Source: a virus
Lineage: Duplodnaviria; Heunggongvirae; Uroviricota; Caudoviricetes
DNA: 64,000 nucleotides
Reading direction: 5' to 3' (one strand)
IMG/VR virus record: IMGVR_UViG_2695420523_000009
Coordinates: 12,534-76,533 of that record
Shown here one piece after another: positions 2,141 through 60,668 of the stretch. The notes beneath the pieces were generated by a model. The model was not told the origin of the DNA and made no database searches. It worked only from the letters and a program-made list of their open reading frames with translations. Within the stretch, counting starts at the first letter, position 1. Each line of letters opens with the position of its first letter. Both the position numbers and the translations under genes were made by a program.

Positions 2141-2161
2141 ATAGGTTTTTACTTACCTATC
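2141..2161. promoter_or_regulatory. intergenic palindrome (TAGGTA/TACCTA family) upstream of glutaredoxin gene
   Basis: ATAGGTTTTTACTTACCTATC, arms ATAGGT/ACCTAT; member of a recurrent motif family (see findings). Confidence 0.4.
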
Positions 2162-2217
2162 TTTTATAGTAATATTTATTTTCTGGTTAAGTAACACATA
2201 ATTATTATGAGGTAAAC

Positions 2218-2463
2218 ATGACTATCGTTATCTACGGACGAGATAACTGCTCATATTGCAAACGTGCGGTCGAGCTGGCGAAACAACTAAAGGGACACGG
2301 CTATGGTGATTATGAGTACATCGACATCACCACTGCCGGTATCGATAAGGAAAAACTTAGCGAAATTGTTGGCAAACCGGTAGAGACTATCCCCCAGGTA
2401 CTGATCGATGGCCAACCGATTGGCGGATACACAGAACTGGCTGCATACGTCACCACTCTCTAA
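2218..2463 (+). CDS. glutaredoxin (Grx1/NrdH-like redoxin)
   Basis: 81 aa, CSYC active-site motif, GKPVETIPQVLIDGQPIGGYTEL closely resembles E. coli GrxA; RBS GAGG upstream; hairpin terminator follows. Confidence 0.85.
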   Translation: MTIVIYGRDNCSYCKRAVELAKQLKGHGYGDYEYIDITTAGIDKEKLSEIVGKPVETIPQVLIDGQPIGGYTELAAYVTTL

Positions 2464-2468
2464 TTTTA

Positions 2469-2493
2469 ACGGCTCACAGGAGCCGTTTTTGTT
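2469..2493 (+). terminator. rho-independent terminator
   Basis: ACGGCTCACAGGAGCCGT hairpin followed by TTTTGTT. Confidence 0.7.
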
Positions 2494-2542
2494 CCCACCA
2501 AACTCACGCTTGGTTCCCTTAAAATTCAAAAAACAACGGCTA

Positions 2543-2575
2543 AATGATTCCATACCTACTATGTATGGAATCATT
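2543..2575. repeat. perfect 13-7-13 inverted repeat (AATGATTCCATAC-ctactat-GTATGGAATCATT); candidate recombinase core site
   Basis: Exact 13-bp inverted arms with 7-bp spacer, about 100 bp upstream of the tyrosine recombinase gene; lox/dif-like architecture. Confidence 0.5.
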
Positions 2576-2673
2576 ACTGAAAATGAGTTACTTTTACTCT
2601 TGATCCTATAAGAATCTATGCCTAATATACTGTTTACTTATACAGTGAATCGGCGTAACTCGGTGATTGTCAT

Positions 2674-3777
2674 ATGAAAAATAGCTTTGACAGAGCACGC
2701 GCTGCGGAGAACACCTCAAAAGAGGCGATTGAGTATCTCGAAAGAGCATCTCAAATGCAGGCCGTTATGATCTCGCAGGTTAGCAATGATATGAGATTCT
2801 CGGACGCATTCATGTTATTTACTCGCTTATCTCTGCTGATAACCAGACGTCGGCCAGAGATCGCTGTTCATTGTATTTTGATACATGTTTTGCCGCACAT
2901 TGCCGATGTAAAAGTAAGTGACATTAATAGGTTCATGGTGAACCAACTGGTCAACCCACTAATACTGGATGGCAAAATTGTTATGGGCCGCCGCGTTTTC
3001 TCTCTGATGAAGCAGTTCCTTAGCTGGTGCGCCTTCCAGGGGATGATAGACGTGTCACCGTTAAACGATATGTCACTAAACAAAGTTGCCGGTGGCGCAA
3101 AGCCCACACCTCGCGAGCGGAAGCTGACCGACGCAGAGGTATGGGTGTTCTGGAATATATGGGACTACTTCAATGTGTGCGCTGGTACAAAATGGGCGGC
3201 CAGGCTGTGTCTTGTATCCGCAAGACGACCTGACGAAGTACTGCGGGCTAAAAAAAGTGAGTTCAATCTTAAGCGTGGGGTTTGGAATCAAGGCAAGAGG
3301 AACAAATCTGCCCGTGAGCATTCGCTGCCTTTAAGCACATTAATGCGCACATGTATTGAAGAGTTGTTCGAATACGGTAAAGGCAGCCAGTGGCTCGTGC
3401 CTTCGAATAAAAAAATCGGGAAAGATCTTCCTATGTCTAAAGTGGCAATAGCCCAGGCATTACGTCGTATCCTGGAACGACCAGAACTGATGGAGCTTGA
3501 GCCATTTACACCCCGAGACTTGCGCCGTACTGCGCGTAGTTACTTCCCAGCATTAGGCATAAGCCAGGAGGTATCACGCAAAATCATGAACCACAGTCTT
3601 GAGGGGATAGATCGAGTCTACGACCGGCACGATTATATGGACGAGATGCGAGACGCCTTAGAAAGTTTCTCGACGTACATCGCATCAATCGTAGAGCAAC
3701 CGGATTTAGACGAAATTGACCACAAATTCAAGGGAGATCGTCTATCAACAGAGCTTATTCGTGTAAATTTTTCATAG
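2674..3777 (+). CDS. tyrosine recombinase (phage-integrase family, core-binding + catalytic domains, no arm-binding domain)
   Basis: Catalytic signature ARRPDE ... RDLRRTARS ... NHSLEGIDRVYDRHDY (R-H-R-Y); 367 aa, lacking the N-terminal arm-type DNA-binding domain of P4-like integrases. Confidence 0.85.
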   Translation: MKNSFDRARAAENTSKEAIEYLERASQMQAVMISQVSNDMRFSDAFMLFTRLSLLITRRRPEIAVHCILIHVLPHIADVKVSDINRFMVNQLVNPLILDGKIVMGRRVFSLMKQFLSWCAFQGMIDVSPLNDMSLNKVAGGAKPTPRERKLTDAEVWVFWNIWDYFNVCAGTKWAARLCLVSARRPDEVLRAKKSEFNLKRGVWNQGKRNKSAREHSLPLSTLMRTCIEELFEYGKGSQWLVPSNKKIGKDLPMSKVAIAQALRRILERPELMELEPFTPRDLRRTARSYFPALGISQEVSRKIMNHSLEGIDRVYDRHDYMDEMRDALESFSTYIASIVEQPDLDEIDHKFKGDRLSTELIRVNFS

Positions 3778-4158
3778 AGACTTTATGGCCTCAACAACCT
3801 TTTGTGATGCGCCTTTCTCTTTACCGAATCGCTCGTTATATGCAGCAAGAACCTGTTTTTCGTCCTCGTTAAGAGGAGCGGTGCCTTCTTTGTATAAAAA
3901 TGCTGCGAGTTCAGGTTGGCGTTCTTCCAGCACCATCATCATAAGACGACTTGGCTCAATACCCAGCGCCAGCGCCAACGGACGAACCTTATCGATAGGC
4001 AAAGGAATTTTGCCACTTTTAATTAAAGAAAGGTTGTTGGCATTTTTATAACCAATAAGTCTGGCTATTTGGGCCTGACTCATAGGTGAGGATTCAATCA
4101 GCCCTGCGATAAAAGCAGCATAGCGACTTTCTATAAATTCAATCTTGTTGTCAGACAT
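3772..4158 (-). CDS. XRE-family helix-turn-helix transcriptional regulator
   Basis: SQAQIARLIGYKNANNLSLIKSGK HTH_XRE-like motif; 128 aa; convergent with the recombinase gene. Confidence 0.8.
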   Translation of the reverse strand: MSDNKIEFIESRYAAFIAGLIESSPMSQAQIARLIGYKNANNLSLIKSGKIPLPIDKVRPLALALGIEPSRLMMMVLEERQPELAAFLYKEGTAPLNEDEKQVLAAYNERFGKEKGASQKVVEAIKSL

Positions 4159-4189
4159 TGTTACAACCTTTGCGCGTTCAATTCTCTCT

Positions 4190-4203
4190 GGTAAGTGCTT
4201 ACC
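4190..4203. promoter_or_regulatory. palindrome GGTAAGtgCTTACC in promoter region of the XRE regulator (candidate auto-operator)
   Basis: 6-bp inverted arms with 2-bp spacer, about 35 bp upstream of the regulator start codon; GGTAAG/CTTACC half-sites recur nearby (about 4310 and 4375). Confidence 0.4.
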
Positions 4204-4408
4204 GATATTACATCAAAGGTTAGGGTTGTAAAGCTATTATCATTTTTTCGATAGGCACTTAAAAGACCGGTTAAAGGCCATTGCACGGAGAAAAATTAGC
4301 CCAAAACAGGTAAGAAAATTAACTTGCATATGATATGAATGTATTCAGTATTGATATAAATTTTAGTAGTATTCCTTACCATAGTATAAGTTAGAATGGA
4401 TTGATTGA

Positions 4409-4621
4409 ATGAACACCACTATTTCCAGCCTAATCGCTCTTGAGATCGGACACGTACAGAAATTAGCTGATGAGTGTGTAGCTGACATCCTCACCGATCT
4501 ACCGAATGAGCAGATTCAGGTTGGTGTGAATGACACAACTGGCTTTATATTCGAACTTAACAACAAACGCTTCACGCTTCTCAATATCGGCTCCGGGTCT
4601 TTAGCCGTCAGAATCTGTTAA
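4409..4621 (+). CDS. hypothetical small protein
   Basis: 70 aa ORF divergent from the XRE regulator; weak RBS; no motif. Confidence 0.3.
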   Translation: MNTTISSLIALEIGHVQKLADECVADILTDLPNEQIQVGVNDTTGFIFELNNKRFTLLNIGSGSLAVRIC

Positions 4622-6828: not shown

Positions 6829-6923
6829 ACAAAACAGCCTTAACGATAAGTAACCACTTACGATATATAATGATATATTTATATAAGAAGTTGAACGCTC
6901 ATTAGAGAACAAAGGAAAAACGC

Positions 6924-8159
6924 ATGACGACTACTGCACTGCAAAATGAAAAAAATCCTTCTGATTACCTTGTTTGCAAGTGGTGCGGCAAATCATTTCA
7001 CTATTTTAAGTCCCATGTAGCCAATGGTAATTGCGAGGGCATTCCTGAGTCAGTAAAAGATGCCGATCCTGACACCGTACTGAAAATGTACACAACGCAG
7101 TTTCCAGATGAACCAACGCTATCGAAAAAGGCACTTGATGCAATTCAAGCTAAACGTGCCGAGCAAAAAAGCGAAATGGCCAAATCTTCTGGCTTGACCA
7201 GTAGCCCTGGCTACACAGGCACAGTTGAGTACAAGACAGATCTGGTCGCAGCTCACGAACTGCTAAACGTAACGGTGGAAGAACTCGGAACAAAACGTGG
7301 GACGCCGCTCATGGTTAGCGTCAACGTCAATACGCCGTATCCAGAGTTCGTTCCCGAAGTGAAGAAAGGCTACGTATATGGCGACTTCGAACTGATCAAA
7401 GATATTTTCATGATGCTTGAACTTGGCATACCTGGCTATTTGTGGGGTCATGCAGGAACAGGCAAATCGTCATTGCCTACACAGCTATGTGCTTTGCTCA
7501 ATCGTCCGTTGATCCGTGCCCAACATACAGCATCAATGGAAGAGGCACATGTTACGGGGCAAATTCTGGCGCGTGATGGCTCTACGTATTTCGAACCTGG
7601 CTTGCTTGCGCTCGCAATGAAGCATGGCTGGGTTTACCTCGCGGATGAATACGACTTTGCGTTTCCACAAATTCTTGGCGTGTATCAGCCAGTGCTGGAA
7701 GGTGAAGCGTTGGTCATCAAAGAGGCAACTCCAGAATGGCGTCGCATTACTCCGCATGAACGGTTTGCTTTCATTGGCACTGGCAACACGAACGGATCTG
7801 GTGATGAAACCGGCTTGTACCAGGGTACAAACATCCAGAACGCCGCGAACTTTTCGCGTTTTGGCATCGTTTCGAATGTGAAATACATGAGCAAAGACGC
7901 AGAGATCAACATGTTGACAAATGCAGGCATCGTGGATGAATACGCTGAAAAGATGGTTAAGTTTGCCGGTATCGTTCGCGATGGATACGAAGAACACCTC
8001 ATTAGTCAGCCAATTGGCCCTCGTGAACTTTTGTTGTCGGCCAAGATTGGAATGATGCGAGGCGACTTTGTGACAGGTATTGAGCGTTCTTTCATTAACA
8101 AACTCCCTTCAGCTTCTGCACAAGCGGCTCGTGAAGTTGTTCAAAAAATATTTGGTTAA
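6924..8159 (+). CDS. cobS: CobS-like AAA+ ATPase (MoxR family)
   Basis: Walker A GHAGTGKSS, Walker B VYLADEYD, N-terminal Cys-rich stretch (CKWCGKSFHYFKSH); RBS AAAGGAAAAACGCATG. Confidence 0.8.
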   Translation: MTTTALQNEKNPSDYLVCKWCGKSFHYFKSHVANGNCEGIPESVKDADPDTVLKMYTTQFPDEPTLSKKALDAIQAKRAEQKSEMAKSSGLTSSPGYTGTVEYKTDLVAAHELLNVTVEELGTKRGTPLMVSVNVNTPYPEFVPEVKKGYVYGDFELIKDIFMMLELGIPGYLWGHAGTGKSSLPTQLCALLNRPLIRAQHTASMEEAHVTGQILARDGSTYFEPGLLALAMKHGWVYLADEYDFAFPQILGVYQPVLEGEALVIKEATPEWRRITPHERFAFIGTGNTNGSGDETGLYQGTNIQNAANFSRFGIVSNVKYMSKDAEINMLTNAGIVDEYAEKMVKFAGIVRDGYEEHLISQPIGPRELLLSAKIGMMRGDFVTGIERSFINKLPSASAQAAREVVQKIFG

Positions 8160-11858: not shown

Positions 11859-11865
11859 TCCCATA

Positions 11866-11892
11866 AACATGGCCTCTATGGCCATGTTTTCT
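11866..11892 (+). terminator. rho-independent terminator
   Basis: AACATGGCC-tctat-GGCCATGTT hairpin followed by TT run, just after the dnaE stop. Confidence 0.7.
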
Positions 11893-11983
11893 CTTATCCC
11901 CTCATATCCCCTATCCTCGAACTCCTTGCCTTATCATCACAATGATATAATCAATATAAGATGATAAGTAAAAAGGAAAGCAT

Positions 11984-12415: not shown

Positions 12416-12532
12416 TTTTTGATAGATAATAAGTAAGTACTGATCTATTATTTAACAGCTCGAAAGAGCCACGAATGAACGAAAGCCCAACGCGCATAGC
12501 GCCATCGGCCAAATCACAACAAGGAGAAACAC

Positions 12533-14834: not shown

Positions 14835-15908
14835 ATGGCAAAAGGAAAATCCGCACTGGCACTTGCTCTGAAAAAGAAAATCGGTAGCAACGACGAAATT
14901 CAGAAAGTAACTCATTGGATTGATACAGGCTTTCCACCGTTAAACAAAGCTATTTCTGGTCGTTACGATGGCGGCTTCCCATGTGGTCGTATCGTCGAAG
15001 TATTCGGTCCTCCAAGTGCAGGGAAAACGTTCCTTGCAACAGCAGCGATGATCTCCGCTCAAAAACAAGATGGTCTGGCGGTATTCCTCGATCATGAAAA
15101 CAGTTTTGACGTTGGCCTGGCTGTAGCCAATGGCCTGAACGCAGATGAAGATGACGGCCAGTGGGTATACAAGCAGCCAGATACCTTCGAAGACTCTGTG
15201 GAGTTGATCGGCACAATACTTAAATTGGTACGTGATGAAGAGCTTATCCCTGAATCAGCACCTATCTGTATCGTGGCGGACTCACTTGCGTCTATGGTTC
15301 CGAACTCCAAAGCCGAGAAGTTCGAAAAGATGGCTGAAGGCACTGCCAAAGACAAAGATCAGCTAAACATGAATGACAATACGGCGCTGGCTCGTGCGAC
15401 GAGTGCGAACTTCCCCACTCTGGCTTTGTGGGCACGCAAATACAACGCCTGCATCATCTTCTTGAATCAGGTTCGCACAAAAATCGGTGTAATGTTTGGC
15501 GACCCTACGACGTCACCAGGTGGCGATTCGCCGAAGTTTTACGCTTCTGTGCGCATCCGTCTCGGTGCATCGGTGATGAAGGATGGTAAAGAGAAGATCG
15601 GTCAGGACGTAGGCGCAGAGTGCATCAAAAACAAAGTTGCACCACCTTATGGCAAGTGCACCTGGAAATTCTACTTCGATCCTACTCGTGGCCTCGACGT
15701 TATCGAATCGCTCGTCGAGTACATGCTGGATGAAGGATACCTGCCAAAGAACGCAAGCGGTCGAGTAGAAATTGGCGACAAGAAATACACCAAATCACAG
15801 ATCGTCGAGATGTATCGGGAGAAGCCACTAGCTGAAATCATTGCGGCTTTGCAGGCAATCGACGACCGGAGAGCAAAAGACACCCCCACCGAGTCAGTAG
15901 AAGAGTAA
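14835..15908 (+). CDS. RecA/UvsX-family recombinase
   Basis: Walker A GPPSAGKTFLA, RecA-like core (VFLDHENSFD ... IIFLNQVRTKIG); 357 aa. Confidence 0.85.
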   Translation: MAKGKSALALALKKKIGSNDEIQKVTHWIDTGFPPLNKAISGRYDGGFPCGRIVEVFGPPSAGKTFLATAAMISAQKQDGLAVFLDHENSFDVGLAVANGLNADEDDGQWVYKQPDTFEDSVELIGTILKLVRDEELIPESAPICIVADSLASMVPNSKAEKFEKMAEGTAKDKDQLNMNDNTALARATSANFPTLALWARKYNACIIFLNQVRTKIGVMFGDPTTSPGGDSPKFYASVRIRLGASVMKDGKEKIGQDVGAECIKNKVAPPYGKCTWKFYFDPTRGLDVIESLVEYMLDEGYLPKNASGRVEIGDKKYTKSQIVEMYREKPLAEIIAALQAIDDRRAKDTPTESVEE

Positions 15909-15912: not shown

Positions 15913-15937
15913 AAGGCGTCCACAGGACGCCTTTTTT
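15913..15937 (+). terminator. rho-independent terminator
   Basis: AAGGCGTCC-aca-GGACGCCTT followed by TTTT; stem nearly identical to the terminators at 13579 and 17052. Confidence 0.75.
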
Positions 15938-15952
15938 ATCTCTTGAAAATAT

Positions 15953-15968
15953 ATAAGTACCTACTTAT
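15953..15968. promoter_or_regulatory. palindrome ATAAGTA-cc-TACTTAT
   Basis: Perfect 7-bp inverted arms, 2-bp spacer, about 30 bp upstream of the ATG at 16001. Confidence 0.4.
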
Positions 15969-16000
15969 TATTTTCGCATAACAACCACATAGGAAAACAC

Positions 16001-16201
16001 ATGATCAAAATCTATCTATTGGCAGTAACCACAGGCCTTTCAGTGGCTCTCATCTACGGTTTACTGGTTCCGTCGCTGATTTCTACCAAGAGTGATTTAG
16101 CCGTCATGTTTGGAATTATCGTTGGTTTTGGTGCTCCTGTAATCGGTCTTATTGCTGGTCGTAAATTTATTAACTCATTAATCAAAGCAAAGGGGAAATA
16201 A
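16001..16201 (+). CDS. small membrane protein (2 predicted TM helices)
   Basis: 66 aa, hydrophobic, RBS AGGAAAACACATG; directly upstream of the SPFH lipoprotein gene. Confidence 0.55.
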   Translation: MIKIYLLAVTTGLSVALIYGLLVPSLISTKSDLAVMFGIIVGFGAPVIGLIAGRKFINSLIKAKGK

Positions 16202-17552: not shown

Positions 17553-17607
17553 TCGCCTATTCATAACTAACAAAATAAGTAAACACTAACCACAAAAGGA
17601 AAAACAC

Positions 17608-17883
17608 ATGAGAGTTTTAGTTCGAATCGTTACCAGCACTGTCTATGACGTGTTTCCGCTTTTTATGGTCAAAGTCGATGGCCTTAACGATGAAGAAACT
17701 GACGCGCTGATCCAGCGTACTCTTGTTGAATATACAGGTCATGACGCTGATTCAGTGATGGTTGATGATGATGGTGTTTGTTGGCATAACGGCAACTGTT
17801 GGTACGTAGAAGAGACTCAACAAATCAGTAATGAAGATGCTGAACATCTTGAGCGTATTTTAAGCATCAGCACTTTTGAGTGA
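17608..17883 (+). CDS. hypothetical protein
   Basis: 91 aa ORF with conserved initiation context AAAAGGAAAAACACATG. Confidence 0.55.
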   Translation: MRVLVRIVTSTVYDVFPLFMVKVDGLNDEETDALIQRTLVEYTGHDADSVMVDDDGVCWHNGNCWYVEETQQISNEDAEHLERILSISTFE

Positions 17884-17922
17884 GTTTACAGTAAAGTTTA
17901 TATAAGTTAGTATCTACCTATC

Positions 17923-21700: not shown

Positions 21701-21720
21701 ATAGGTATATACTTACTTAT
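21701..21720. promoter_or_regulatory. intergenic palindrome (TAGGTA/TACTTA family)
   Basis: ATAGGTATATACTTACTTAT. Confidence 0.35.
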
Positions 21721-21832
21721 AAATTTTGTATATTAAGACGCTCGTTTCATTCCTAACATACCGTTATGCATAGTTGTTTACCTTCTCATTGCTCTTAAAA
21801 TTTGTATCAAAATAACCACAAAGGAAAAACAC

Positions 21833-22918
21833 ATGACTTTGCCATACGGCGTCATTTCTGACTGCCACTACCACAAATGGGATGCGTTCTCCACGACGAA
21901 CGCAGAGGGGCTTAACTCCAGACTTGAAATACAGTTGGAAGCAACGAAAGAAGCAGCCATCGCCATGAAGAAGGCCGGTTGTAAGTACATGTTGGTTGCC
22001 GGTGATACATTTCACGTCCGAGGAACTGTGTCCCCTTCTGTTTTGCATTACGTAACTGAAACGTACAAGTGGATTATCAACGAGCTTGATCTGACAGTAG
22101 TAATGCTGGCCGGTAATCACGATCTTGAAACCAACGATTCAGTATATAGCGCCAACGCAGCAGCATCGCTGAGTTCTATCGGCGTGGTAATCGTATGTGG
22201 CAAACGCCCACACTCAATAAAAATTGGTGATGTGACTGTCCACCTGATTAGCTGGCGTAACAATCATGCGGAGCTTATCAGCGATCTGAAAGCATTACGT
22301 AAGAGCGTAGAAGGTGATAATCATGACGTTGTTATCCATACATCCATTAACAAAGCCATTCCAACAATGCCTGACGTCGGTATCGATGCGCAGGAGTTAA
22401 AGGATATCGGCTTTCGTCTCGTGCTTAGTGGGCATTACCACAACCACAAAGAGGTCATTCCTGGAGTTATCAGTGTCGGTGCGCTGACCCATCAAAATTG
22501 GGGAGATGTTGGATCTCTGGCTGGTTACATGATCGTAAACCCGGACGGCAGTTTCAGTCACTACGAAACCAGTGCGCCTAAATTCATTAACCTGGAAGAT
22601 TATGTTGCCGATGACCAAATTCGCGGCAACTACGTGCGTTTCCGCGCCGTAATTGAGAACGATGAAGAAGGCATTAAGTACCAGAACATCCTCAAAACAA
22701 TGGGTGCAAAAGGTGTCGTGTGCAACTTCATCCGTAAGTCATCAATGATGGAAGGGACAGCAAGCACAACGGAAACCAGCAAAATCGATAGCCTGGGAGA
22801 GTCGGTATCTGCTTATTGCAAGATTGTCCACGATACTGACGGCGGATTTGATCTGAGCAAGTTGGATATTTTGTGTCAGGAAATCCTCACCGAAGCGGAG
22901 AGTTCGGAGGCTGTGTGA
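21833..22918 (+). CDS. sbcD: SbcD/Mre11-family nuclease (T4 gp47-like)
   Basis: Calcineurin-like phosphoesterase motifs SDCHYH, GDTFH, GNHD; conserved start context AAAGGAAAAACACATG. Confidence 0.85.
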   Translation: MTLPYGVISDCHYHKWDAFSTTNAEGLNSRLEIQLEATKEAAIAMKKAGCKYMLVAGDTFHVRGTVSPSVLHYVTETYKWIINELDLTVVMLAGNHDLETNDSVYSANAAASLSSIGVVIVCGKRPHSIKIGDVTVHLISWRNNHAELISDLKALRKSVEGDNHDVVIHTSINKAIPTMPDVGIDAQELKDIGFRLVLSGHYHNHKEVIPGVISVGALTHQNWGDVGSLAGYMIVNPDGSFSHYETSAPKFINLEDYVADDQIRGNYVRFRAVIENDEEGIKYQNILKTMGAKGVVCNFIRKSSMMEGTASTTETSKIDSLGESVSAYCKIVHDTDGGFDLSKLDILCQEILTEAESSEAV

Positions 22919-26401: not shown

Positions 26402-26410
26402 TATTAACAT

Positions 26411-35906: not shown

Positions 35907-35937
35907 TGATTGCCAGACATAAAATCAAATGCAAAAA

Positions 35938-36746: not shown

Positions 36747-36977
36747 ATGTCATACCCGACTAATGTCGTTGCGCTCGTAGAGAGCGATTTTCTGGCCCAG
36801 GCTCGTGAAATGATGAAAGATCGTGAGCAGGCTTTCAACTTGTACGAATGGGCAATTAAGTGCTTGCATCTTGGCGAGCATCGCGAACTTGTTGAACAGC
36901 TTTTAGGTGAGTTGATCAATGAGGTGTTTGCCTTGAATGTTCAACTACATGGTAGAGAAAATAATCAATCACAATGA
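36747..36977 (+). CDS. hypothetical protein
   Basis: 76 aa from ATG 36747 with RBS AAGGAAACC. Confidence 0.45.
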   Translation: MSYPTNVVALVESDFLAQAREMMKDREQAFNLYEWAIKCLHLGEHRELVEQLLGELINEVFALNVQLHGRENNQSQ

Positions 36978-36989
36978 TAGATAAGTACA

Positions 36990-38151: not shown

Positions 38152-38252
38152 TAAGTAAGTGTTTACCTATCATTTTAAATCATGTATCTTATCGGCGTCA
38201 GGATGACAATGTGTCGGTAAGACACAGTTCCAGGATGGAACGAGAAAGGCGG

Positions 38253-38290
38253 NNNNNNNNNNNNNNNNNNNNNNNNNNNNNNNNNNNNNN
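38253..38290. other. assembly gap (run of 38 N)
   Basis: Literal N characters in the sequence. Confidence 1.
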
Positions 38291-40541: not shown

Positions 40542-42227
40542 ATGAATACAGCCCTTTCCATCATCGACGATGCCAGCTCAAACACGGCTATCGACTATCG
40601 TCAGGAAATGAATGTCATCCACGAAATCGTGGCCGAGTGCGAGAAAGAGATCGCCTTCATGTATCAGGTACACGACTTCGTTTATGGCGACGAACGCCAC
40701 AACATGATTAATCGCCTGCTGAGACTAAACCATCGACCAGATGAAGATCGCTCGCGTTTAAATCGAGGTTGGTTGGATAAAGTCGATCTGGAATGGGTGA
40801 AACAGAATATTTGGGCCGAGTACTGGAGGAAGGTCACGGACATGACTAACGTTTTGCTGATCATGCCAGCTTCCCGTCGAGATGAGTGGCGCGAGCAGTT
40901 TATAGAGGGCAAACAGGAAGTCATCAAAACTGACAGAACCGGCTACCAGATGAAGGTTAAAGAGTTCGTTGGTGTACCGGAGTTCAAAGCAGAAACGGTC
41001 ATACCCACGATGCTTAATTTACTGAATGACAGGCACAAATATCTCTCTGAGCGCGTGTATGGCTTGTTTAAGGCGCTGAGTCCTGCGCACAAGACAAATA
41101 AGACAAACGGTTTCAGCGAGCGGCTGATAATCGCTGACTGCATTTCTGATTTCTGGCGGGACAGCGTTAGCGTGAACTATCGCAAAGAGGACTACATCGA
41201 CGATCTACGTGTCTTGCTTCATTTCTTCGCGCACAAAGAATTTATTACCATCAACCGCACTGCTGAGGTGCTATCAGCTGCGTATAGGGCAAACGACTGC
41301 CAGACCGGTGACTGGATGAACGTCGATGGAAATCTGATGCGCGTGAAGATGTTCAAGAACGGCAACGTTCACTTTGAAATACATCCTGACGTGGCCTGGA
41401 AGTTGAATGAGGTGCTGGCTTACAGTATGCCTGCTGCAATCCCCGCGCCATGCCGAACTGCGCCAAAAACACGGGCACCAAAGCAGTTCGGGTTAATCCA
41501 GAAGACGATCTCCGTGCCGGTTCGCACTGCGCTTCGTGACGGGCGATTGAGCAAAGACAAAGGCGTATGGTACTTCTCTGATTCAGCTCTCCAGAAGTCG
41601 CAGGTGGAAGAGCTTGAGCGCACACTGAGCTTCATTGGCGGCGTGCAGGAGAAAAAGCACTGGCAGTTCCCGTATAACATCGGCCATACGCTAAATACGA
41701 TTGTGGCTACCGGTTTAATACCGGATACAAAATCACACCAGTTCTACCCTACCCCACGCTTGATTGCTGAGTACGTTGCAAGAGCCACTGAATTGAAGCC
41801 TGGTGAGAAGCTGTTGGAGCCTCAAGCCGGACGTGGGGATCTTCTGGCCTATATAAACGCCGATCTGGAAGATGTTACCTGCATAGAAATCGCACCTCTC
41901 TTCGCTGATATCCTGCGTGGAAAAGGGTATACGAACACGATTTGCTGCGACTTCATAAAGTGGTCTGAGGACAACGCAGGTTATCAGTTCGACAAAATCG
42001 TTATGAACCCGCCGTACTCGCTTGGTCGTCATAGAGAGCACACGCTGGCTGCGCTGGGGCATCTGAAAGTCGGCGGGCGTCTTGTAGCAGTATTGCCAGG
42101 CACTGCGCCAATACTGGACTGGATGACGATGGATAATTACGTTTATGCCAGAGGGAAGTCGTTTACCAACGAGTTTGAAGACACAGGGATCACAGTCAGC
42201 GTATACGTTTTCAAACGCGTTAAATGA
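40542..42227 (+). CDS. DNA methyltransferase (N6-adenine type) with about 380-aa N-terminal domain of unknown function
   Basis: C-terminal FYPTP, LEPQAGRGD (SAM-binding motif I-like) and IVMNPPYS (motif IV). Confidence 0.7.
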   Translation: MNTALSIIDDASSNTAIDYRQEMNVIHEIVAECEKEIAFMYQVHDFVYGDERHNMINRLLRLNHRPDEDRSRLNRGWLDKVDLEWVKQNIWAEYWRKVTDMTNVLLIMPASRRDEWREQFIEGKQEVIKTDRTGYQMKVKEFVGVPEFKAETVIPTMLNLLNDRHKYLSERVYGLFKALSPAHKTNKTNGFSERLIIADCISDFWRDSVSVNYRKEDYIDDLRVLLHFFAHKEFITINRTAEVLSAAYRANDCQTGDWMNVDGNLMRVKMFKNGNVHFEIHPDVAWKLNEVLAYSMPAAIPAPCRTAPKTRAPKQFGLIQKTISVPVRTALRDGRLSKDKGVWYFSDSALQKSQVEELERTLSFIGGVQEKKHWQFPYNIGHTLNTIVATGLIPDTKSHQFYPTPRLIAEYVARATELKPGEKLLEPQAGRGDLLAYINADLEDVTCIEIAPLFADILRGKGYTNTICCDFIKWSEDNAGYQFDKIVMNPPYSLGRHREHTLAALGHLKVGGRLVAVLPGTAPILDWMTMDNYVYARGKSFTNEFEDTGITVSVYVFKRVK

Positions 42228-42247
42228 TAGGTAAATACTTACTTAAT
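42227..42247. promoter_or_regulatory. intergenic palindrome (TAGGTA/TACTTA family)
   Basis: GATAGGTAAATACTTACTTAA. Confidence 0.35.
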
Positions 42248-42288
42248 TTGTGTAAGAATTTAGTGACTAAACGATAAGAGAAAAACAC

Positions 42289-42993
42289 ATGAACAACCTC
42301 CAGTTAGAGCATTTTAACGTCACAGGCCATTCTGATTTTCCTTTCAAGTTTACATTGAAAGGTTATGCAGAGGATGCGGTAGGCCAGATCATTATTGATA
42401 AAGGCATCGTTAAGTTTGAGGGGAATTTTGATGAATCCGCGAAAACATTCATAGACTTCGTTGCCAAACGTTGGAGCGAGCAATGGAAAGACATGGAAAA
42501 GCGCGCTAGTGAGTTTGATCGGTTCATGGATGCAATGGATACAGCAAAAGAGGCTCTTGCTGCCGGGACTCCGTTAGATCTTGAGTCACTTTTCAACGGC
42601 GAAGTGGCCTCTGCGATGTTCGCCACCATGTTCGCGGGTGAGTTCGTCCGCAGCGGTGCCAAAAACTACCTTGAGCTGGATTACAACGTCCCTGCAATTG
42701 GCGATTTCGTCGTTACCATCCAACGCAAAGAAGGTAAGACGCCAGGTGAATGCGTCGCAGAGCTTGAGGCCGTTGTGGATCAGCGTAACGGAGAGTGTGA
42801 CCGTTTGATCAACGAGCTTCATGCACTTCGGGAAGAAAGAATATGTGCGGGTAGCAATACACGTAATGCAGCGGATATCTACTTCCAGTTAGTTGAGGAA
42901 TGCCAGATTCCACCAGGTGGCTCTCTTGTCGATTACGTCAGACATTTAATGGCGGAAGTTAACTCCAGCCATAAAGATGGTGAGGTGCGCTGA
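42289..42993 (+). CDS. hypothetical protein
   Basis: 234 aa, start context AGAGAAAAACACATG. Confidence 0.55.
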   Translation: MNNLQLEHFNVTGHSDFPFKFTLKGYAEDAVGQIIIDKGIVKFEGNFDESAKTFIDFVAKRWSEQWKDMEKRASEFDRFMDAMDTAKEALAAGTPLDLESLFNGEVASAMFATMFAGEFVRSGAKNYLELDYNVPAIGDFVVTIQRKEGKTPGECVAELEAVVDQRNGECDRLINELHALREERICAGSNTRNAADIYFQLVEECQIPPGGSLVDYVRHLMAEVNSSHKDGEVR

Positions 42994-45658: not shown

Positions 45659-45678
45659 TACTGTATGCATATACAGTA
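45659..45678 (+). promoter_or_regulatory. LexA (SOS) box
   Basis: TACTGTATGCATATACAGTA matches the CTGT-N8-ACAG consensus; 17 bp upstream of the UmuD'-like start. Confidence 0.8.
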
Positions 45679-45694: not shown

Positions 45695-46084
45695 ATGGGC
45701 TTCCCTTCTCCTGCGGCGGATTATGCTGAGAGCCGTATTTCTCTTGATCAGCAGATAATTAGACATCCTTCAGCGACCTACTTCATGAGGGCGGCTGATA
45801 GTCATCATCGTGAGGGAATATTGCAGGGTGCATTGCTGGTGGTCGATTCCTCACTGACTCCTGTTGATGGATCTCTTCTTGTATGTGCTCTGGATGGGGA
45901 ATATCGCGTAAAAAGATACCGGAAGTATCCACGTCAGCATCTGGAGGATTTAAGAACTGGTAAGAAGGAAGCATTGCCAAAGGATGATGATGGATGCACG
46001 GGCAGCAATGCCGTGTTTGGTGTGATCACTCACATTATCAACGACGCAAGAAGTGGCGAGTTTGATGATTGTCCTGTGATGTAG
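45695..46084 (+). CDS. UmuD'-like protein (S24 peptidase family; pre-processed UmuD analogue, HumD-like)
   Basis: Starts MGFPSPAADY, equivalent to UmuD just after its Cys24/Gly25 cleavage site; HPSATYF, DS (Ser) and VK (Lys) catalytic positions retained; RBS AAGAGG; SOS box upstream. Confidence 0.75.
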   Translation: MGFPSPAADYAESRISLDQQIIRHPSATYFMRAADSHHREGILQGALLVVDSSLTPVDGSLLVCALDGEYRVKRYRKYPRQHLEDLRTGKKEALPKDDDGCTGSNAVFGVITHIINDARSGEFDDCPVM

Positions 46085-47222: not shown

Positions 47223-47379
47223 CCCGTCTCCTTTATTTTAATTTGCGCAATTGTCGCCTTGTAGTGTACTCCAGCTGCGACATTTAATCATTTATGAGAA
47301 ATGCTGTTATCACATGGCAGACATAAGGCCATTTTGTTACTATCAAGCCCCTTTTCACTACAAAGAAGTAATGCCTACT

Positions 47380-49413
47380 ATGACCCAAGTCGCGAAGAAA
47401 ATTCTGGTGACGTGCGCGCTGCCGTACGCTAACGGCTCAATCCACCTCGGCCATATGCTGGAGCACATCCAGGCTGATGTCTGGGTTCGTTACCAGCGAA
47501 TGCGCGGCCACGAGGTTAATTTCATCTGTGCCGACGATGCCCACGGTACGCCGATCATGCTGAAAGCACAGCAACTTGGTATCACACCGGAGCAGATGAT
47601 TGGCGAAATGAGTCAGGAACACCAGACTGATTTCGCAGGCTTTAACATCAGCTATGACAACTATCACTCGACGCACAGCGAAGAGAACCGTCAGTTGTCT
47701 GAGCTTATCTATACTCGCCTGAAAGAGAACGGTTTTATTAAAAATCGCACTATCTCTCAGTTGTACGACCCGGAAAAAGGCATGTTCCTGCCGGATCGTT
47801 TTGTGAAAGGCACCTGCCCGAAATGTAAAGCGCCAGATCAATACGGCGATAACTGTGAAGTTTGCGGCGCGACCTACAGCCCGACTGAACTGATCGAGCC
47901 GAAATCGGTGGTTTCTGGTGCTACCCCGGTAATGCGTGATTCTGAACACTTCTTCTTTGATCTGCCCTCTTTCAGCGAAATGTTGCAGGCATGGACCCGC
48001 AGCGGTGCGTTGCAGGAGCAGGTGGCAAACAAAATGCAGGAGTGGTTTGAATCTGGTCTGCAACAGTGGGATATCTCCCGCGACGCACCTTACTTCGGTT
48101 TTGAAATTCCGAACGCGCCGGGCAAATATTTCTACGTCTGGCTGGACGCACCGATTGGCTACATGGGTTCCTTCAAGAATCTGTGCGACAAACGCGGCGA
48201 CACTACCAGCTTCGACGAATACTGGAAGAAAGACTCCACCGCCGAGCTGTACCACTTCATCGGTAAAGATATCGTTTACTTCCACAGCCTGTTCTGGCCT
48301 GCCATGCTGGAAGGCAGCAACTTCCGCAAGCCGACCAACCTGTTTGTTCATGGCTATGTGACGGTGAACGGCGCGAAGATGTCTAAGTCTCGCGGTACCT
48401 TTATTAAAGCCAGCACCTGGCTGAATCATTTTGACGCTGACAGCCTGCGTTACTACTACACTGCGAAACTCTCTTCGCGCATTGATGATATCGATCTCAA
48501 CCTGGAGGATTTCGTTCAGCGCGTGAATGCCGATATCGTGAACAAAGTGGTGAATCTGGCGTCCCGTAACGCGGGCTTTATCAATAAGCGTTTTGACGGT
48601 GTGCTGGCAGGCGAACTGGCTGACCCGCAACTGTACAAAACCTTTACTGATGCCGCTGAAGTGATTGGTGAAGCATGGGAAAGCCGCGAATTTGGTAAAG
48701 CGATTCGTGAAATCATGGCGCTGGCTGATCTGGCTAACCGCTATGTCGATGAACAGGCTCCGTGGGTGGTGGCGAAGCAGGAAGGACGCGATGCCGATCT
48801 GCAGGCGATTTGCTCTATGGGCATTAACCTGTTCCGCGTGCTGATGACGTACCTGAAACCGGTACTGCCGAAACTGACTGAACGTGCAGAAGCATTCCTG
48901 AATACAGAACTGACCTGGGATGGTATCCAGCAACCGCTGCTGGGCCATAAAGTGAATCCGTTCAAGGCACTGTATAACCGTATCGATATGAAACAGGTGG
49001 AAGCACTGGTGGAAGCATCCAAAGAAGAAGTGAAAGCCACAGCTGCACCGGTAACTGGCCCACTGGCTGACGACCCGATTCAGGAAACCATCACCTTTGA
49101 CGACTTCGCCAAAGTTGACCTGCGTGTGGCGCTGATTGAAAACGCGGAGTTTGTCGAAGGTTCTGACAAACTGCTGCGCCTGACGCTGGATCTCGGTGGT
49201 GAAAAGCGTAATGTCTTCTCAGGCATCCGTTCCGCTTATCCAGATCCACAGGCACTGATTGGTCGTCACACCATTATGGTGGCTAACCTGGCTCCGCGTA
49301 AAATGCGCTTCGGTATCTCTGAAGGCATGGTGATGGCTGCTGGCCCCGGCGGGAAAGATATCTTCCTGTTAAGCCCGGATGCCGGTGCTAAACCAGGCCA
49401 TCAGGTTAAGTAA
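47380..49413 (+). CDS. metG: methionyl-tRNA synthetase
   Basis: From [26 protein letters not shown] (HIGH motif) through KMSKS and the C-terminal tRNA-binding domain, collinear and near-identical to E. coli MetG (677 aa); start set to the internal ATG 47380. Confidence 0.97.
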
Positions 49414-53604: not shown

Positions 53605-53608
53605 TATT

Positions 53609-53624
53609 GTAAGTACATACTTAC
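53609..53624. promoter_or_regulatory. palindrome GTAAGTA-ca-TACTTAC
   Basis: Perfect 7-bp inverted arms, 2-bp spacer; same architecture as 15953..15968. Confidence 0.45.
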
Positions 53625-53667
53625 GATCATAGAATATAAAAATAATCAAAACACTACGGAGAGTGAA

Positions 53668-57745: not shown

Positions 57746-58270
57746 TCAAAAAGGCAAAATTCGTTCAACCCAATCGAACAAAACAACTATTTTTCTACCG
57801 TTCTCGACACGTAGTGTAACCTGACAAGCATCTGCACCTGCTGACACCCCCTCAATTTCACGGCCATCCGCCATGTACACCCTTATAGATTTGTTTGCTT
57901 TGTAGGCTTGGTTGCAAATTGCAAAAAAATCGCGGCGTGATGGCCGATTATCGACATAATCAGGGTGAACTGTTAGTCGACCTTTGAAATCGTGAGCGAT
58001 ACTGTCAACCACACCTGATTCAATTGTACTAATGCGTTCAAGTGGGAGCCTTATACGATTTTCTTTGTCAAAAGGGGCTGGGCAAAGGTCAACTTTGTTA
58101 CGAGATGGCATGAGGCCATAAACGTACATGCAAAACGCCTGGCCATCTTCGAGAGTGACCCTTACAGGAATTTGTTCTCTGCGCCAGAACATCAGTAGTT
58201 TTTCAACGTTAGTGTAATCTCGCGGCCAGAGTTCAGCTTGGATACCGTAGGTAATATCTTTGGTTGTCAT
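57746..58270 (-). CDS. hypothetical protein
   Basis: 175 aa from the internal ATG at 58270; the ORF-track start 58348 would overlap the upstream lipoprotein gene by 74 nt. Confidence 0.45.
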   Translation of the reverse strand: MTTKDITYGIQAELWPRDYTNVEKLLMFWRREQIPVRVTLEDGQAFCMYVYGLMPSRNKVDLCPAPFDKENRIRLPLERISTIESGVVDSIAHDFKGRLTVHPDYVDNRPSRRDFFAICNQAYKANKSIRVYMADGREIEGVSAGADACQVTLRVENGRKIVVLFDWVERILPF

Positions 58271-58274
58271 GTCA

Positions 58275-58739
58275 TCACAGAGTTGTTGGCAGAATGTCGA
58301 TGTCACCAGAATTGCTGGTGAACACCCTGAACGCTTTTGTGTCTCCATTCTTCAGAGTCGTTTCTCGCTCTTGACGAGCGGGGTTTAGAGCACATAAACC
58401 TGCACCTTCAAGAGATGCACCCACAATTAATTCTCCGGCATTTAAATGGAAAGTCGCTTTTTCGCCTGTAGCCAGTTTTGCGACAGTTTCGCCGTTGATG
58501 AAAATGGAAGCATCACATCCAGCTCCTACAAAACCTGTGTCTCTCATTACCACCAACGTAGCTGGCGCTGCGCTTTGATACTTGAACACTTTGGCCTGCG
58601 GTGCTGGTTTGGCGTCATGGATTGATATTGGGCGTGATTGGCACGCGGTAAGCATCAACACTGGTAACGTTAGTAGAGGGAGAAGCGAGTATTTCATGAT
58701 AGTTTTAGAACAGAAAGTGAACAGTATGGGAGACTTCAT
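58275..58739 (-). CDS. putative lipoprotein
   Basis: Lipobox LTAC; the internal Met (58697) gives a canonical 19-aa lipoprotein signal peptide (MKYSLLPLLTLPVLMLTAC); RBS AGGGAG before the 58739 start. Confidence 0.6.
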   Translation of the reverse strand: MKSPILFTFCSKTIMKYSLLPLLTLPVLMLTACQSRPISIHDAKPAPQAKVFKYQSAAPATLVVMRDTGFVGAGCDASIFINGETVAKLATGEKATFHLNAGELIVGASLEGAGLCALNPARQERETTLKNGDTKAFRVFTSNSGDIDILPTTL

Positions 58740-58765
58740 CTTTGTCTCCCTAATTGATAGCGTGA

Positions 58766-59044
58766 TTATTTTAATCTGCTTAATAGCGTTTCGAGATCTT
58801 CCTTTGTCATATTAGAGTTCTCATAGATACGCATGATTTTCTCACGAGTCTTAGCGGAAGCCCCGACAGAAGATATAACCTTGTCAAAGTCGGCCATTGT
58901 CAATTGTTCCAGAATGGTATTTATGACTTCAGCCTTAGACATTTTGATATTTTTTTCTTTTAGTTTCACTTGAAACTTTCCAAGTTTGTCATTGGCCTTA
59001 TCAGACAATGCTACCTGACAGTAAGTTGTTTTCTTTTCACTCAT
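58766..59044 (-). CDS. hypothetical protein
   Basis: 92 aa, starts 2 nt after the helicase stop (coupled). Confidence 0.5.
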   Translation of the reverse strand: MSEKKTTYCQVALSDKANDKLGKFQVKLKEKNIKMSKAEVINTILEQLTMADFDKVISSVGASAKTREKIMRIYENSNMTKEDLETLLSRLK

Positions 59045-59046
59045 AA

Positions 59047-60606
59047 CTAATCTCGTTTCAGAACTCCAAAATCGAATGCTCCATCAATAGGCAATACACC
59101 TTCTGCAAAGCCAGGTGTGGTGTCGATGATGTGTTTTCGCTCATAAGAGTGAGACAACAGGTATTTGTTGCTAATGTCAATGAAATCAGTGATAAAACAC
59201 ACGTTTGCCTGATTTTTTTTGGCTCGTAAGCCACGACCGACACGCTGTCTCATTTCAACTTCTGCTTTCCCACCACCAGCAAGAATGACCGCACCAACGC
59301 TTGGCACATCAACACCAACATCCAGAATAGTCGAGCCTATTAAAACATCTATTTCACCAGACGCTAAACTATTCAGCTTTGCTTGCCTTGTCGTCTGGTT
59401 AGATTCCCCATAGATGAAATCAACTTTAAGACCTGACTCCTTCATCATCTCCATCAGGATTTGCCCGTGGCGTTTAAGACGAACCAGAGTCATGCAGTTG
59501 AGTGAATGTTGCTTATAAAGCAATGCCTCGCGCACTATGGCCTCGTTACGTCCCAAATTATACACGATCCCCAACTGATAAGCCTTTTGGTAGGCGGTGC
59601 TCATACCAACTCTAAAATTGAGGTGTTTGTTGGCAAGTTCGGCCTTGATTCTGGCCTCGTCTGGCTTGTAGGCAACTTTATGATAAAGGAAGTACGGCTT
59701 TGCCAGAATGCCTCGATCAATCAGGTACTTTTCTGTGACTTTAATTTCAATTCGCCCGGCCACCGCCATCAGGCGCATGTTGGCTTCCGTCGAATCCTTC
59801 ATGAACGGCGTGGCTGTAAGCGCCAGACGATAGTCTGCGTTCACACATAATCTGGCAATGTCATAGAAATTAGAGCCTGAAGACTCATGCGCTTCTTCCA
59901 GAATAAGCAGAGACACACTTGAAAGGAAGCGTTTCACCAACTCCCGACGTTTGAGATGGTAGCTCTTTTTATCTGGTGTTGCATCGCGTGGTGGTTCTTC
60001 AAGGAAACTTGCCAGAGTTTGAACTGTAGCGACGTTGATATGTCGTGATACCTGGAACTCACCCGAGCCAATGACTCCAACCTTTTGGCCCTTTAACCAC
60101 GGTTCGCCATTTTCGGCGCGGTAGTCGATGGATCTCTGGAAGTTTTCGGCCATTTGAAACATCAGAACAGAGCGGGTTGTTAAAAATAATGTCATTCGAC
60201 CGATACGTGCAGCTGCTTTGCAGGCAACGTTAGATTTCCCGCCACCAGTAGCGATCTGCGCAATCATCATTCCCTCTCGAACCAGTGTTTCCACAGTCTG
60301 ATCCTGATACGCATAATCAGGATTGTATGGGAATGGGTTAACCGCCGGATTTGGTTTACCAAGCGCCGGGGCTTTGTCTTTGCGGATATGAACACATTTG
60401 ATGCCCGCCTTGTTCAAGTTCGCCGCTACAGGCTTGGCAAAGCCAGCAGGGAACGAGTTTTTACTCCAGTTGAACATCGTGCTTGTGCCCTTCCAGTCGC
60501 CAGTCTCGACTTCGTAGCTCAACATTTGCTGCACCAGTTGCTTTACCTTGTCATCTGCGCCAGAAATAAGCGCATTTACTGCGTTAGATACAATCCGAAC
60601 AGTCAT
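59047..60606 (-). CDS. superfamily-2 DNA/RNA helicase (DEAD/DEAH-like, ResIII-type)
   Basis: Walker A IATGGGKS, DEAH-like LILEEAHE, motif III LTATP, motif VI QRVGRGLR. Confidence 0.85.
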   Translation of the reverse strand: MTVRIVSNAVNALISGADDKVKQLVQQMLSYEVETGDWKGTSTMFNWSKNSFPAGFAKPVAANLNKAGIKCVHIRKDKAPALGKPNPAVNPFPYNPDYAYQDQTVETLVREGMMIAQIATGGGKSNVACKAAARIGRMTLFLTTRSVLMFQMAENFQRSIDYRAENGEPWLKGQKVGVIGSGEFQVSRHINVATVQTLASFLEEPPRDATPDKKSYHLKRRELVKRFLSSVSLLILEEAHESSGSNFYDIARLCVNADYRLALTATPFMKDSTEANMRLMAVAGRIEIKVTEKYLIDRGILAKPYFLYHKVAYKPDEARIKAELANKHLNFRVGMSTAYQKAYQLGIVYNLGRNEAIVREALLYKQHSLNCMTLVRLKRHGQILMEMMKESGLKVDFIYGESNQTTRQAKLNSLASGEIDVLIGSTILDVGVDVPSVGAVILAGGGKAEVEMRQRVGRGLRAKKNQANVCFITDFIDISNKYLLSHSYERKHIIDTTPGFAEGVLPIDGAFDFGVLKRD

Positions 60607-60652
60607 AAACCTCTTTCCTTAGTGCCTTTTGTATGTTATTTGGCTATTATAA

Positions 60653-60668
60653 TAAGTAAGTGATTACT
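60653..60668. promoter_or_regulatory. palindrome AAGTAA-gtga-TTACTT in divergent promoter region
   Basis: Between the helicase (minus) and ParB-like (plus) genes. Confidence 0.4.

Follow-up and report, generated by a model that had tools for sequence, protein, structure and literature searches.

Conserved intergenic palindromes of an SSU5/pSLy3-type phage-plasmid as candidate operators of its XRE-type repressor

The DNA analyzed here, referred to as the window, is a stretch of 64,000 nucleotides from a Caudoviricetes virus (IMG/VR record IMGVR_UViG_2695420523_000009, positions 12,534 to 76,533). It was identified as an SSU5/pSLy3-type phage-plasmid with 98% identity to Escherichia phage Cyrano (pLF82) across 24 kb. 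The 64 kb window is half of the phage-plasmid and holds the replication, recombination, and nucleotide-metabolism genes. Almost all lytic-type genes of the window are carried on the plus strand. Gene identities were taken from the Cyrano annotation and the list of open reading frames. Matches to the window were found in hundreds of plasmids of approximately 110 kb from Escherichia, Klebsiella, Enterobacter, Yersinia, and Salmonella. Phage-plasmids of the SSU5/pHCM2/pMT1/pKpn/pSLy3 type are common and, according to a passage of PMC9600943, can bear resistance genes. The subject of this analysis is a palindrome which recurs in the intergenic DNA of the element, together with an element-encoded XRE-type protein as its candidate binder. 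A sequence-only reading of the window had proposed that such palindromes are scattered operators of a master repressor, analogous to the C1 operators of P1. The gene of the candidate binder and its two neighbors are as follows.

3772-4158, minus strand: gene for an XRE-type helix-turn-helix (HTH) protein of 128 amino acids, candidate repressor, homologue of Cyrano CYRAN_45
2674-3777: tyrosine recombinase gene; the XRE gene converges on it and overlaps its end
4409-4621: conserved gene for a 70-amino-acid protein, divergent from the XRE gene

The ideal site is a 20 bp palindrome, ATAGGTAAGT|ACTTACCTAT, with a minimal core of TARGTA-NN-TACTTA. The perfect 20-mer form is ATAGGTAAGTACTTACCTAT, and perfect 20 bp palindromes were found in relatives such as Klebsiella phage pJN2-26. 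The window has at least 15 strong copies and three weak ones (4187, 30960, and 36600). They are listed below with scores from two position weight matrices (PWMs), one built from a seed set of sites and one an independent symmetric matrix trained on SSU5 and one Klebsiella relative only, which avoids circularity.

2141-2160: ATAGGTTTTTACTTACCTAT, divergent gap between orf442 (minus strand) and a glutaredoxin-like gene (plus strand); 26.7 bits seed PWM, 20.9 bits independent PWM
4187-4206: weak member with core GGTAAGTGCTTACC, over the predicted promoter and start site of the XRE gene, adjoining a minus-strand promoter match TTTACA-16-TAATAT (4232-4205); 12.7 bits independent PWM
6842-6861: core ATAAGTAACCACTTAC at 6846-6861, between CobT-like and CobS-like genes; 22.9 bits seed PWM; kept in SSU5 and Klebsiella, with a TATAAT 4 nt downstream (read from the sequence)
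12425-12448: ATAAGTAAGTACTGATCTAT, between uvsY and the gp32-like SSB gene, overlapped by a promoter-like TAGATA-17-TATTAT; 24.6 bits independent PWM; conserved
15953-15972: ATAAGTA-CC-TACTTAT, after the recA/uvsX terminator (15913-15933), in the spacer of the best promoter match of the window (TTGAAA-17-TATTAT, 15943-15971); 0 core mismatches
17571-17590: CAAAATAAGTAAACACTAAC, 55 nt gap between two small genes; 21.0 bits seed PWM
17902-17921: ATAAGTTAGTATCTACCTAT, outside the seed set, overlapped by promoter-like matches; 20.4 bits seed PWM, 19.7 bits independent PWM
21701-21720: ATAGGTATATACTTACTTAT, upstream of sbcD; 26.5 bits independent PWM
26385-26404: ATAGGTAGGTACTTATCTAT, between ruvC and nrdA, overlapped by TTGATA-17-TAACAT and followed by a conserved GC hairpin at 26411-26432; 25.1 bits independent PWM; conserved
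30960-30979: weak copy AATTGTAGGTAGTTATCTAT, at the mazG stop codon; 13.9 bits independent PWM, 2 core mismatches
31102-31121: ATAAGTGGTTACTTATCTTT, 11 nt upstream of the thyX start codon; 27.1 bits seed PWM; conserved
35937-35956: ATAGGTATATACTTACCTAT, 11 nt upstream of the dam start codon; 26.4 bits independent PWM; a conserved promoter-like TTGCCA-17-(TG)AAAAAT ends at the site, which places the predicted start inside it
36600-36619: doubtful degenerate copy ATAAATAACTACATATTAAT; 18.0 bits independent PWM, yet 2 core mismatches
36977-36996: ATAGATAAGTACAAACTATT, overlapping the hyp80 stop codon; 20.0 bits seed PWM, 14.5 bits independent PWM; present in Cyrano
38151-38170: GTAAGTAAGTGTTTACCTAT, outside the seed set, overlapping the RNase H stop codon; 21.2 bits seed PWM, 24.4 bits independent PWM
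42227-42246: ATAGGTAAATACTTACTTAA, overlapping the stop codon of a DUF4942 gene, with a conserved extended -10 (TGTAAGAAT) 7 nt downstream; 26.1 bits independent PWM
53609-53628: GTAAGTA-CA-TACTTAC, after a terminator and upstream of the gene starting at 53668, inside a promoter-like TTGTAA-17-TAGAAT (53607-53635); 0 core mismatches
60652-60671: ATAAGTAAGTGATTACTTAG, 64 nt divergent region between uvsW (minus strand) and a parB-like gene (plus strand); 21.4 bits seed PWM; conserved

All nine sites of the sequence-only reading were present at its coordinates, with the exception that the one placed at 35938 starts at 35937. The copies at 6842, 12425, 17571, 17902, 31102, 36977, and 38151 and the weak ones at 30960 and 36600 had been missed. 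The nine sites and several more aligned without gaps to the consensus ATARGTAnnTACTTAYYTAT. The idea that the palindromes may belong to several classes is wrong, as all copies fit one 20 bp palindrome. The half-site is 4-nt periodic (TAGG-TAAG-TA), so that the 20-mer contains two overlapping 14 bp units, TARGTA-NN-TACTTA, offset by 4 bp. The spacers of 2 to 8 bp described earlier are an artifact of this periodicity. Every window copy contains at least one unit, and the central two positions are free. An inverted repeat of approximately 14 to 20 bp with a tolerant center is the form of Cro/CI (XRE)-type operators. The -10-like TATACT noted inside the palindromes is real, but it occurs in only two copies, in the non-conserved center, and is probably incidental.

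The sites are far more frequent than base composition predicts, as the sequence-only reading would need. The pattern TARGTANNTACTTAY with up to two mismatches gave 51 matches in the window compared to 3.0 ± 2.2 in dinucleotide shuffles (maximum 11). The independent PWM found 16 loci at 12 bits or more compared to 0.17 in first-order Markov simulations. The enrichment is approximately 17-fold for core-pattern matches and approximately 90-fold for PWM loci. Eighteen of 20 core loci were intergenic, while intergenic DNA makes up 15.8% of the window (p = 5e-13). A copy was present in 17 of the 49 intergenic regions of at least 25 nt. The estimate for a whole genome is approximately 27 or more sites.

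Sites were also found in related genomes and in the late region. Cyrano, Salmonella phage SSU5, and Klebsiella phage pJN2-26 (approximately 77 to 78% DNA identity) have the same site in orthologous stretches of intergenic DNA. In eight orthologous regions of the E. coli-type, SSU5, and Klebsiella genomes, 78% of site columns were invariant compared to 55% in the flanks, which include coding sequence (p = 8e-8). At 21701, 18 of 20 columns were invariant amid diverged intergenic DNA and a conserved extended -10 lies 8 to 9 nt downstream. The palindrome and this -10 are nearly the sole conserved blocks upstream of sbcD. The 38151 site also has 18 of 20 columns invariant, and its right arm forms the -35 of a conserved TTTACC-17-TATCTT (alignment read by eye). 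Outside the window, copies were located after the major capsid gene, before tail genes, and before the holin gene. The 27 to 32 nt gap between the TerL and portal genes of relatives contains a further copy. The palindromes form a single site class which is enriched, intergenic, symmetric, and conserved across genera.

No strand bias was found in the mismatches on the sense strand (66 G.T compared to 55 A.C). Across four genome sets, 35 sites had the better-conserved arm on the downstream side and 43 had it on the upstream side, with no significant orientation bias. A -10-like TATnAT peaked at site positions 18 to 23 in more than half of the sites. The same flank was mirrored on the antisense side (15 compared to 12 and 13 compared to 16). 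It is therefore read as AT-rich sequence that extends the palindrome, not as a directional -10, and the idea of a directional promoter with fixed geometry was rejected. No Rfam match was found in the window. The absence of strand and orientation bias speaks against both an RNA hairpin and a directional promoter element. These results point to symmetric recognition on double-stranded DNA.

A plus-strand sigma-70-like match overlaps six of 15 strong sites, and others have a conserved -10 or extended -10 element next to them. Relative to the starts predicted from conserved -10 elements, the site centers range from approximately -37 to +2 (alignments read by eye). Operators typically show such scatter, and activator sites do not. 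The copies at 15953, 31102, 35937, and 53609 are preceded by a terminator and followed by the next gene. Other copies begin at the upstream stop codon or no more than 18 nt from it. The family is not limited to operon boundaries, where the sequence-only reading placed it, as copies also occur between late genes, at promoter-less junctions, and beyond the window.

The XRE protein was assigned to PHROG 8 (transcriptional regulator, E = 6.6e-12). Its AlphaFold model has a five-helix HTH fold with a predicted recognition helix at residues 41 to 47. The leading Foldseek matches of the model were all Cro/CI-XRE repressors with weak E-values, and the element thus encodes a protein of predicted HTH_3/XRE fold. 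A sequence search of the protein against PDB chains gave no match. The Pfam scan found no peptidase domain for RecA-mediated cleavage. PMC9928086 lists CYRAN_45 among the genes with expression in the LF82 lysogen and reports ciprofloxacin as an inducer of Cyrano. The XRE and FljA-like proteins of the window are 100% identical to their counterparts in Escherichia phage CMS-2020a. The XRE-integrase module was found in approximately 1000 PLSDB plasmids from E. coli, Klebsiella, Salmonella, Enterobacter, Yersinia pestis, and Acinetobacter. SSU5, a phage described as virulent (PMC5427195), lacks the module.

The palindrome that had been noted in the promoter of the XRE gene is a family member. It overlaps the predicted promoter, which by position makes it a candidate autoregulation site, and it is kept in Klebsiella (a perfect GGTAAGTACTTACC) and Y. 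pestis pMT1. Copies were found in the XRE upstream region of six lineages, namely E. coli, Klebsiella, pMT1, K. quasipneumoniae (2), Acinetobacter type 1 (3), and Acinetobacter type 2 (2). Two to three copies near the XRE gene occur only in the K. quasipneumoniae and Acinetobacter relatives. The window has a single weak copy at its XRE gene and otherwise one per intergenic region, and is without the tandem clustering of an OL/OR immunity region.

The sequence of the motif varies together with the XRE protein, and phage-plasmids that are syntenic with the window but encode more distant XRE proteins have intergenic palindromes of the same kind whose half-sites are altered. Three motif variants were found and each followed the predicted recognition helix of XRE and not its overall divergence, as listed below.

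GTAAGT|ACTTAC: enterobacterial helix (K/E)N(A/P)N(N/I)(L/I)SLIK; in K. quasipneumoniae pKqq_SB1124_3 the XRE protein is 39% identical overall, its helix NANNISLIKSG is nearly identical, and the TAAGTA motif is kept
GTAAGC|GCTTAC: Acinetobacter baumannii type 2, helix NQNMVSFIV, site ATTAGTAAGC|GCTTACTAAT
GTCAGT|ACTGAC: A. baumannii type 1, helix KRPNVLSMIK, site ATCAGTCAGT|ACTGACTGAT

The A. baumannii type 1 motif had 15 matches compared to 1.7 in shuffles, and 13 of the 15 were intergenic. The change from TAAG to TCAG is present in both arms and both registers, and the residue at the start of the recognition helix changes along with it from Asn39 to Arg. This A-to-C change would fit the usual Asn-adenine and Arg-guanine contacts. 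One host species harbors both Acinetobacter types, a point in favor of element-encoded specificity and against a host factor. A scan of IMG/VR with the XRE alignment returned close relatives only (at least 57% identity) and no new specificity class. The E. coli plasmid p1585m1_B was considered as a heteroimmune variant and ruled out, as it has a Yersinia/Salmonella-type XRE and the same motif.

The explanation favored here, with a probability of roughly 60%, is that the palindromes are operators of the XRE repressor of the element itself and form a multi-operator regulon which silences the lytic genome in the plasmid state. This is the best-supported part of the sequence-only reading, resting on the copies at the XRE promoter and the covariation of motif and helix, with binding as a prediction. 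An XRE dimer would recognize the inverted repeat with TARGTA-NN-TACTTA as its minimal unit. The 15 to 18 sites of the window, and the approximately 27 or more of the genome, lie in intergenic DNA ahead of lytic transcription units. Most would overlap the -35, spacer, -10, or start of a sigma-70-like promoter, where a bound repressor would occlude RNA polymerase. At the few sites in tight promoter-less junctions it could act as an elongation roadblock. The weaker copy over the XRE promoter would give negative autoregulation. The net effect would be that genes for replication, recombination, nucleotide metabolism, and the virion, approximately 100 kb in all, stay silent during plasmid maintenance. 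We infer the role of XRE as binder, repression upon binding, and the roadblock alike.

A number of points weigh against this explanation. SSU5 is without the XRE gene yet retains all sites, which fits a recent deletion but would equally fit another binder or a function in the lytic cycle. The covariation rests on three specificity classes, and other regulators also diverge between lineages, including the 70-amino-acid gene (4409-4621) divergent from XRE. The Pfam HTH_19 match of XRE was below the gathering cut-off and its model was of moderate confidence only, with a predicted local distance difference test (pLDDT) score of 73. The consensus promoter scan was not above shuffles overall, so individual promoter calls are suggestive only. 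There is no room for a promoter in the 11 nt before the thyX and dam starts or in the TerL-portal gap of relatives. Simple promoter occlusion cannot account for every copy for this reason, and a roadblock to elongation is a possible and reasonable addition at such junctions.

A broader version is tentative and clearly less probable. This is a symmetric, stoperator-like silencing in which XRE would occupy approximately 30 palindromes, at nearly all junctions of gene clusters and also at those of the late operon that have no promoter, and block both initiation and read-through, with two alternative binding registers offered by the 4-nt periodic half-site and with a switch thrown by the SOS response through the integrase promoter. 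Induction would then follow from transcriptional interference or antisense RNA and not from repressor cleavage. The recombinase ("integrase") gene converges on XRE and XRE has no cleavage domain, which makes SOS-driven convergent transcription a candidate induction route. Upstream of the recombinase gene is a promoter whose -10 (TAATAT) is overlapped by a LexA box (CTGTTTACTTATACAG, 2630-2645). Cyrano, Klebsiella pJN2-26, Y. pestis pMT1, and K. quasipneumoniae all keep this box.

An activator of the lytic cycle, or a phage-specific promoter part which replaces the -35 in the manner of the Lpa-dependent late promoters of P1 (palindrome at approximately -22), is an unlikely alternative to repression. 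The TATnAT at fixed positions in more than half of the sites, the presence of sites ahead of both early-type and late genes, and their retention in SSU5 without an XRE gene would suit such a role. The mirrored flank and the lack of orientation bias in the better arm would not. The distance to conserved -10 elements varies by approximately 40 bp (alignments read by eye), where an Lpa-type site would keep a fixed distance. Several sites are too near start codons to stand upstream of a promoter, and no candidate activator was identified. Hairpins in the mRNA between cistrons, acting in processing, stability, or translation and perhaps bound by an FljA-like or other RNA-binding protein, are more doubtful again. 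Many copies lie 0 to 18 nt from the upstream stop or 10 to 17 nt before the start in co-directional operons, and the element encodes a protein of the FljA family (PF03614, E = 2.5e-84). The sense strand has no bias compatible with G.U pairing and there is no orientation bias. The sequence itself is conserved at all loci beyond what pairing requires, the center is unpaired and variable, and the stems are short and AU-rich without an Rfam match. Copies are also found in divergent promoter regions and at the XRE promoter.

A host regulator such as NarL/NarP or RcsB is very improbable as the binder. The half-sites TACTTAT and TACCTAT fit TACYYMT, the NarL/NarP heptamer consensus, and TAAG..CTTA resembles RcsB boxes. 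The heptamers here are tail-to-tail, opposite to the NarL 7-2-7 arrangement. Two phage-plasmid types of one host species, A. baumannii, have different motifs, and the motif follows the XRE helix of the element with a copy conserved in the XRE promoter. Centromere-like or DNA-organizing sites for ParB-like proteins (60671-62037) have a similarly slight probability. A palindrome of 16 to 20 bp is the usual form of parS, one copy is immediately upstream of the parB-like gene, and a ParB_N domain was found by Pfam. Set against this are the genome-wide number of copies, almost exclusively intergenic, the position of the ParB-like genes beside the terminase cluster and not in a partition operon, and the absence of a copy in the intergenic region upstream of the Cyrano ParA operon (Cyrano 29024-29307). 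The least probable of all is that the repeats are without function, arising from compositional chance, as stop-codon-rich filler, or as recombination boundaries spread by module exchange. The motif often supplies the stop codon of the upstream gene, and because it holds TAG and TAA in two frames per strand it would be disfavored inside genes. The scale of the enrichment, the conservation of the sites above the surrounding intergenic DNA across genera, and the concerted change of the half-site in both arms and both registers in the Acinetobacter lineages all speak for function. Each of these explanations is disfavored by at least one test and keeps a small probability.

The FljA-family protein ("repressor of phase-1 flagellin") has 200 amino acids, is encoded at 57746-58348 on the minus strand, and has a faint Hfq-like C-terminal match. 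Its identity in SSU5 and the Klebsiella relatives is 65 to 80%. An Acinetobacter relative carries an Hfq gene (31399-31938) in place of the FljA-like gene. As a binder of the palindromes the FljA-like protein was rejected, since a role at the RNA level is unlikely without strand bias. FljA acts on fliC mRNA, as is also cited in PMC2652032, and that paper gives no FljA binding site. The phage-plasmid could use its FljA-like protein to shut off host flagellin.

The candidate XRE regulon was compared to known systems. The likeness to P1 C1 holds for the architecture. In both cases a plasmid prophage would use a single repressor specificity with many operators dispersed over approximately 100 kb ahead of separate lytic units (here 15 to 18 within the 64 kb of the window, with further ones in the late region), without a single immunity region and with one operator at a regulatory gene. 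It does not extend to the sites or the protein. The C1 operators are asymmetric 17-mers (ATTGCTCTAATAAATTT), and the C1 protein is larger and not of the XRE type. The sites here are palindromes of 14 to 20 bp with another sequence, and the candidate binder is a 128-amino-acid XRE-type HTH protein which matches HTH/XRE families only. The late genes of P1 use Lpa-dependent promoters, whereas here the same site is also found between late genes.

The gp71 stoperators of mycobacteriophages L5/L1 (cluster A) are similar in number and placement, each genome having tens of sites spread over the short gaps within early and late operons, some of them without a promoter. A spread of this kind suggests blocking of elongation as well as initiation. 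Stoperators are asymmetric 13-mers with an orientation-dependent effect. The sites here are symmetric without orientation bias, and the host and protein family are unrelated. Multiple operators have been noted for the cluster A (L5/L1) repressors (PMC1934351). Because the sites of P1 C1 and the stoperators are asymmetric and their proteins unrelated, the system is not a member of either family.

Lambdoid, 434, and P22 Cro-CI systems share inverted repeats of 14 to 20 bp with a non-conserved center and a dimeric XRE/Cro-CI-type HTH protein as their reader, a role for which XRE is the candidate here. They also share the divergent layout of repressor and small gene with an operator-like site over the repressor promoter. 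They differ in having tandem OL and OR arrays, where the window has single sites at approximately 17 of 49 intergenic regions, and in that XRE is without a peptidase domain for RecA-mediated cleavage. In N15, with its CB repressor and SopB centromere palindromes, some of the dispersed centromere palindromes lie in promoter regions. N15 is likewise a phage-plasmid with dispersed palindromic protein-binding sites. It has approximately four dispersed centromere repeats and clustered repressor operators, with no relationship in sequence or protein to the sites described here. By predicted protein fold and site symmetry the candidate system is a Cro/CI-type system without clustered OL/OR arrays.

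No description of the motif, or of regulation and immunity control in the SSU5 group, was found in the searched literature. A 2024 review of phage-plasmid regulation covers P1, N15, VP882, and GIL01 and is silent on the SSU5 group (PMC11652158). The control circuit appears to be undescribed for this plasmid family, which includes Y. pestis pMT1. With an operator sequence, a candidate repressor, and a predicted specificity residue (Asn39/Arg), lysis-lysogeny control would become directly testable. If the XRE explanation is correct, immunity groups of SSU5-type elements would be predictable from sequence, and the elements would provide a compact set of orthogonal repressor-operator pairs.

A number of other features were observed. 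Approximately 60 nt upstream of the recombinase promoter is a conserved block, GTATGGAATCAT (2560-2580), which takes the form of an inverted repeat in the K. quasipneumoniae plasmid (around 21400). It may be a recombinase target or a resolution site. A second LexA box (CTGTATGCATATACAG, 45661-45676) overlaps the -10 of a promoter-like TTCAAA-17-TATACT and precedes a gene at 45695-46084. The product is a Peptidase_S24 protein of 129 amino acids without a DNA-binding domain, UmuD/HumD-like in appearance. The GC-rich hairpin between the palindrome and the nrdA start codon (GGGCCACTA-TATT-TAGTGGCCC with a T-run, 26411-26432) was kept in all four genomes compared, and in Cyrano several gaps of the late region likewise have a hairpin of this kind after the palindrome. 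Terminator, attenuator, and 5' stabilizer are candidate roles.

The RecA/UvsX-like gene (14835-15908) encodes 357 amino acids in the window compared to 779 in Cyrano, which suggests an inserted element in Cyrano, such as an intein. Cyrano has a HicAB toxin-antitoxin pair between dnaE and uvsY which is absent in the window (compared at 11859-11983). A. baumannii pCMCVTAb1-Ab66 (type 2) encodes a sigma-70-family sigma factor at 15110-15775, between the MoxR/CobS-like gene and dnaE, and no counterpart was seen at this position in the window. The gene after RNase H is broken by a run of 38 N at 38253-38290, which reflects either an assembly gap or masking. The tRNA scan of the window predicted no tRNA genes. 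A full-length methionyl-tRNA synthetase gene is present at 47251-49413 (Cyrano annotation). Many plus-strand genes are preceded by a strongly conserved translation-initiation leader, (ACC)ACAAAGGAAAAACACATG, with examples at 6905-6926, 15985-16003, 17590-17610, 21810-21835, and 42270-42291. In the K. quasipneumoniae relative this leader also ranks first among intergenic k-mers.

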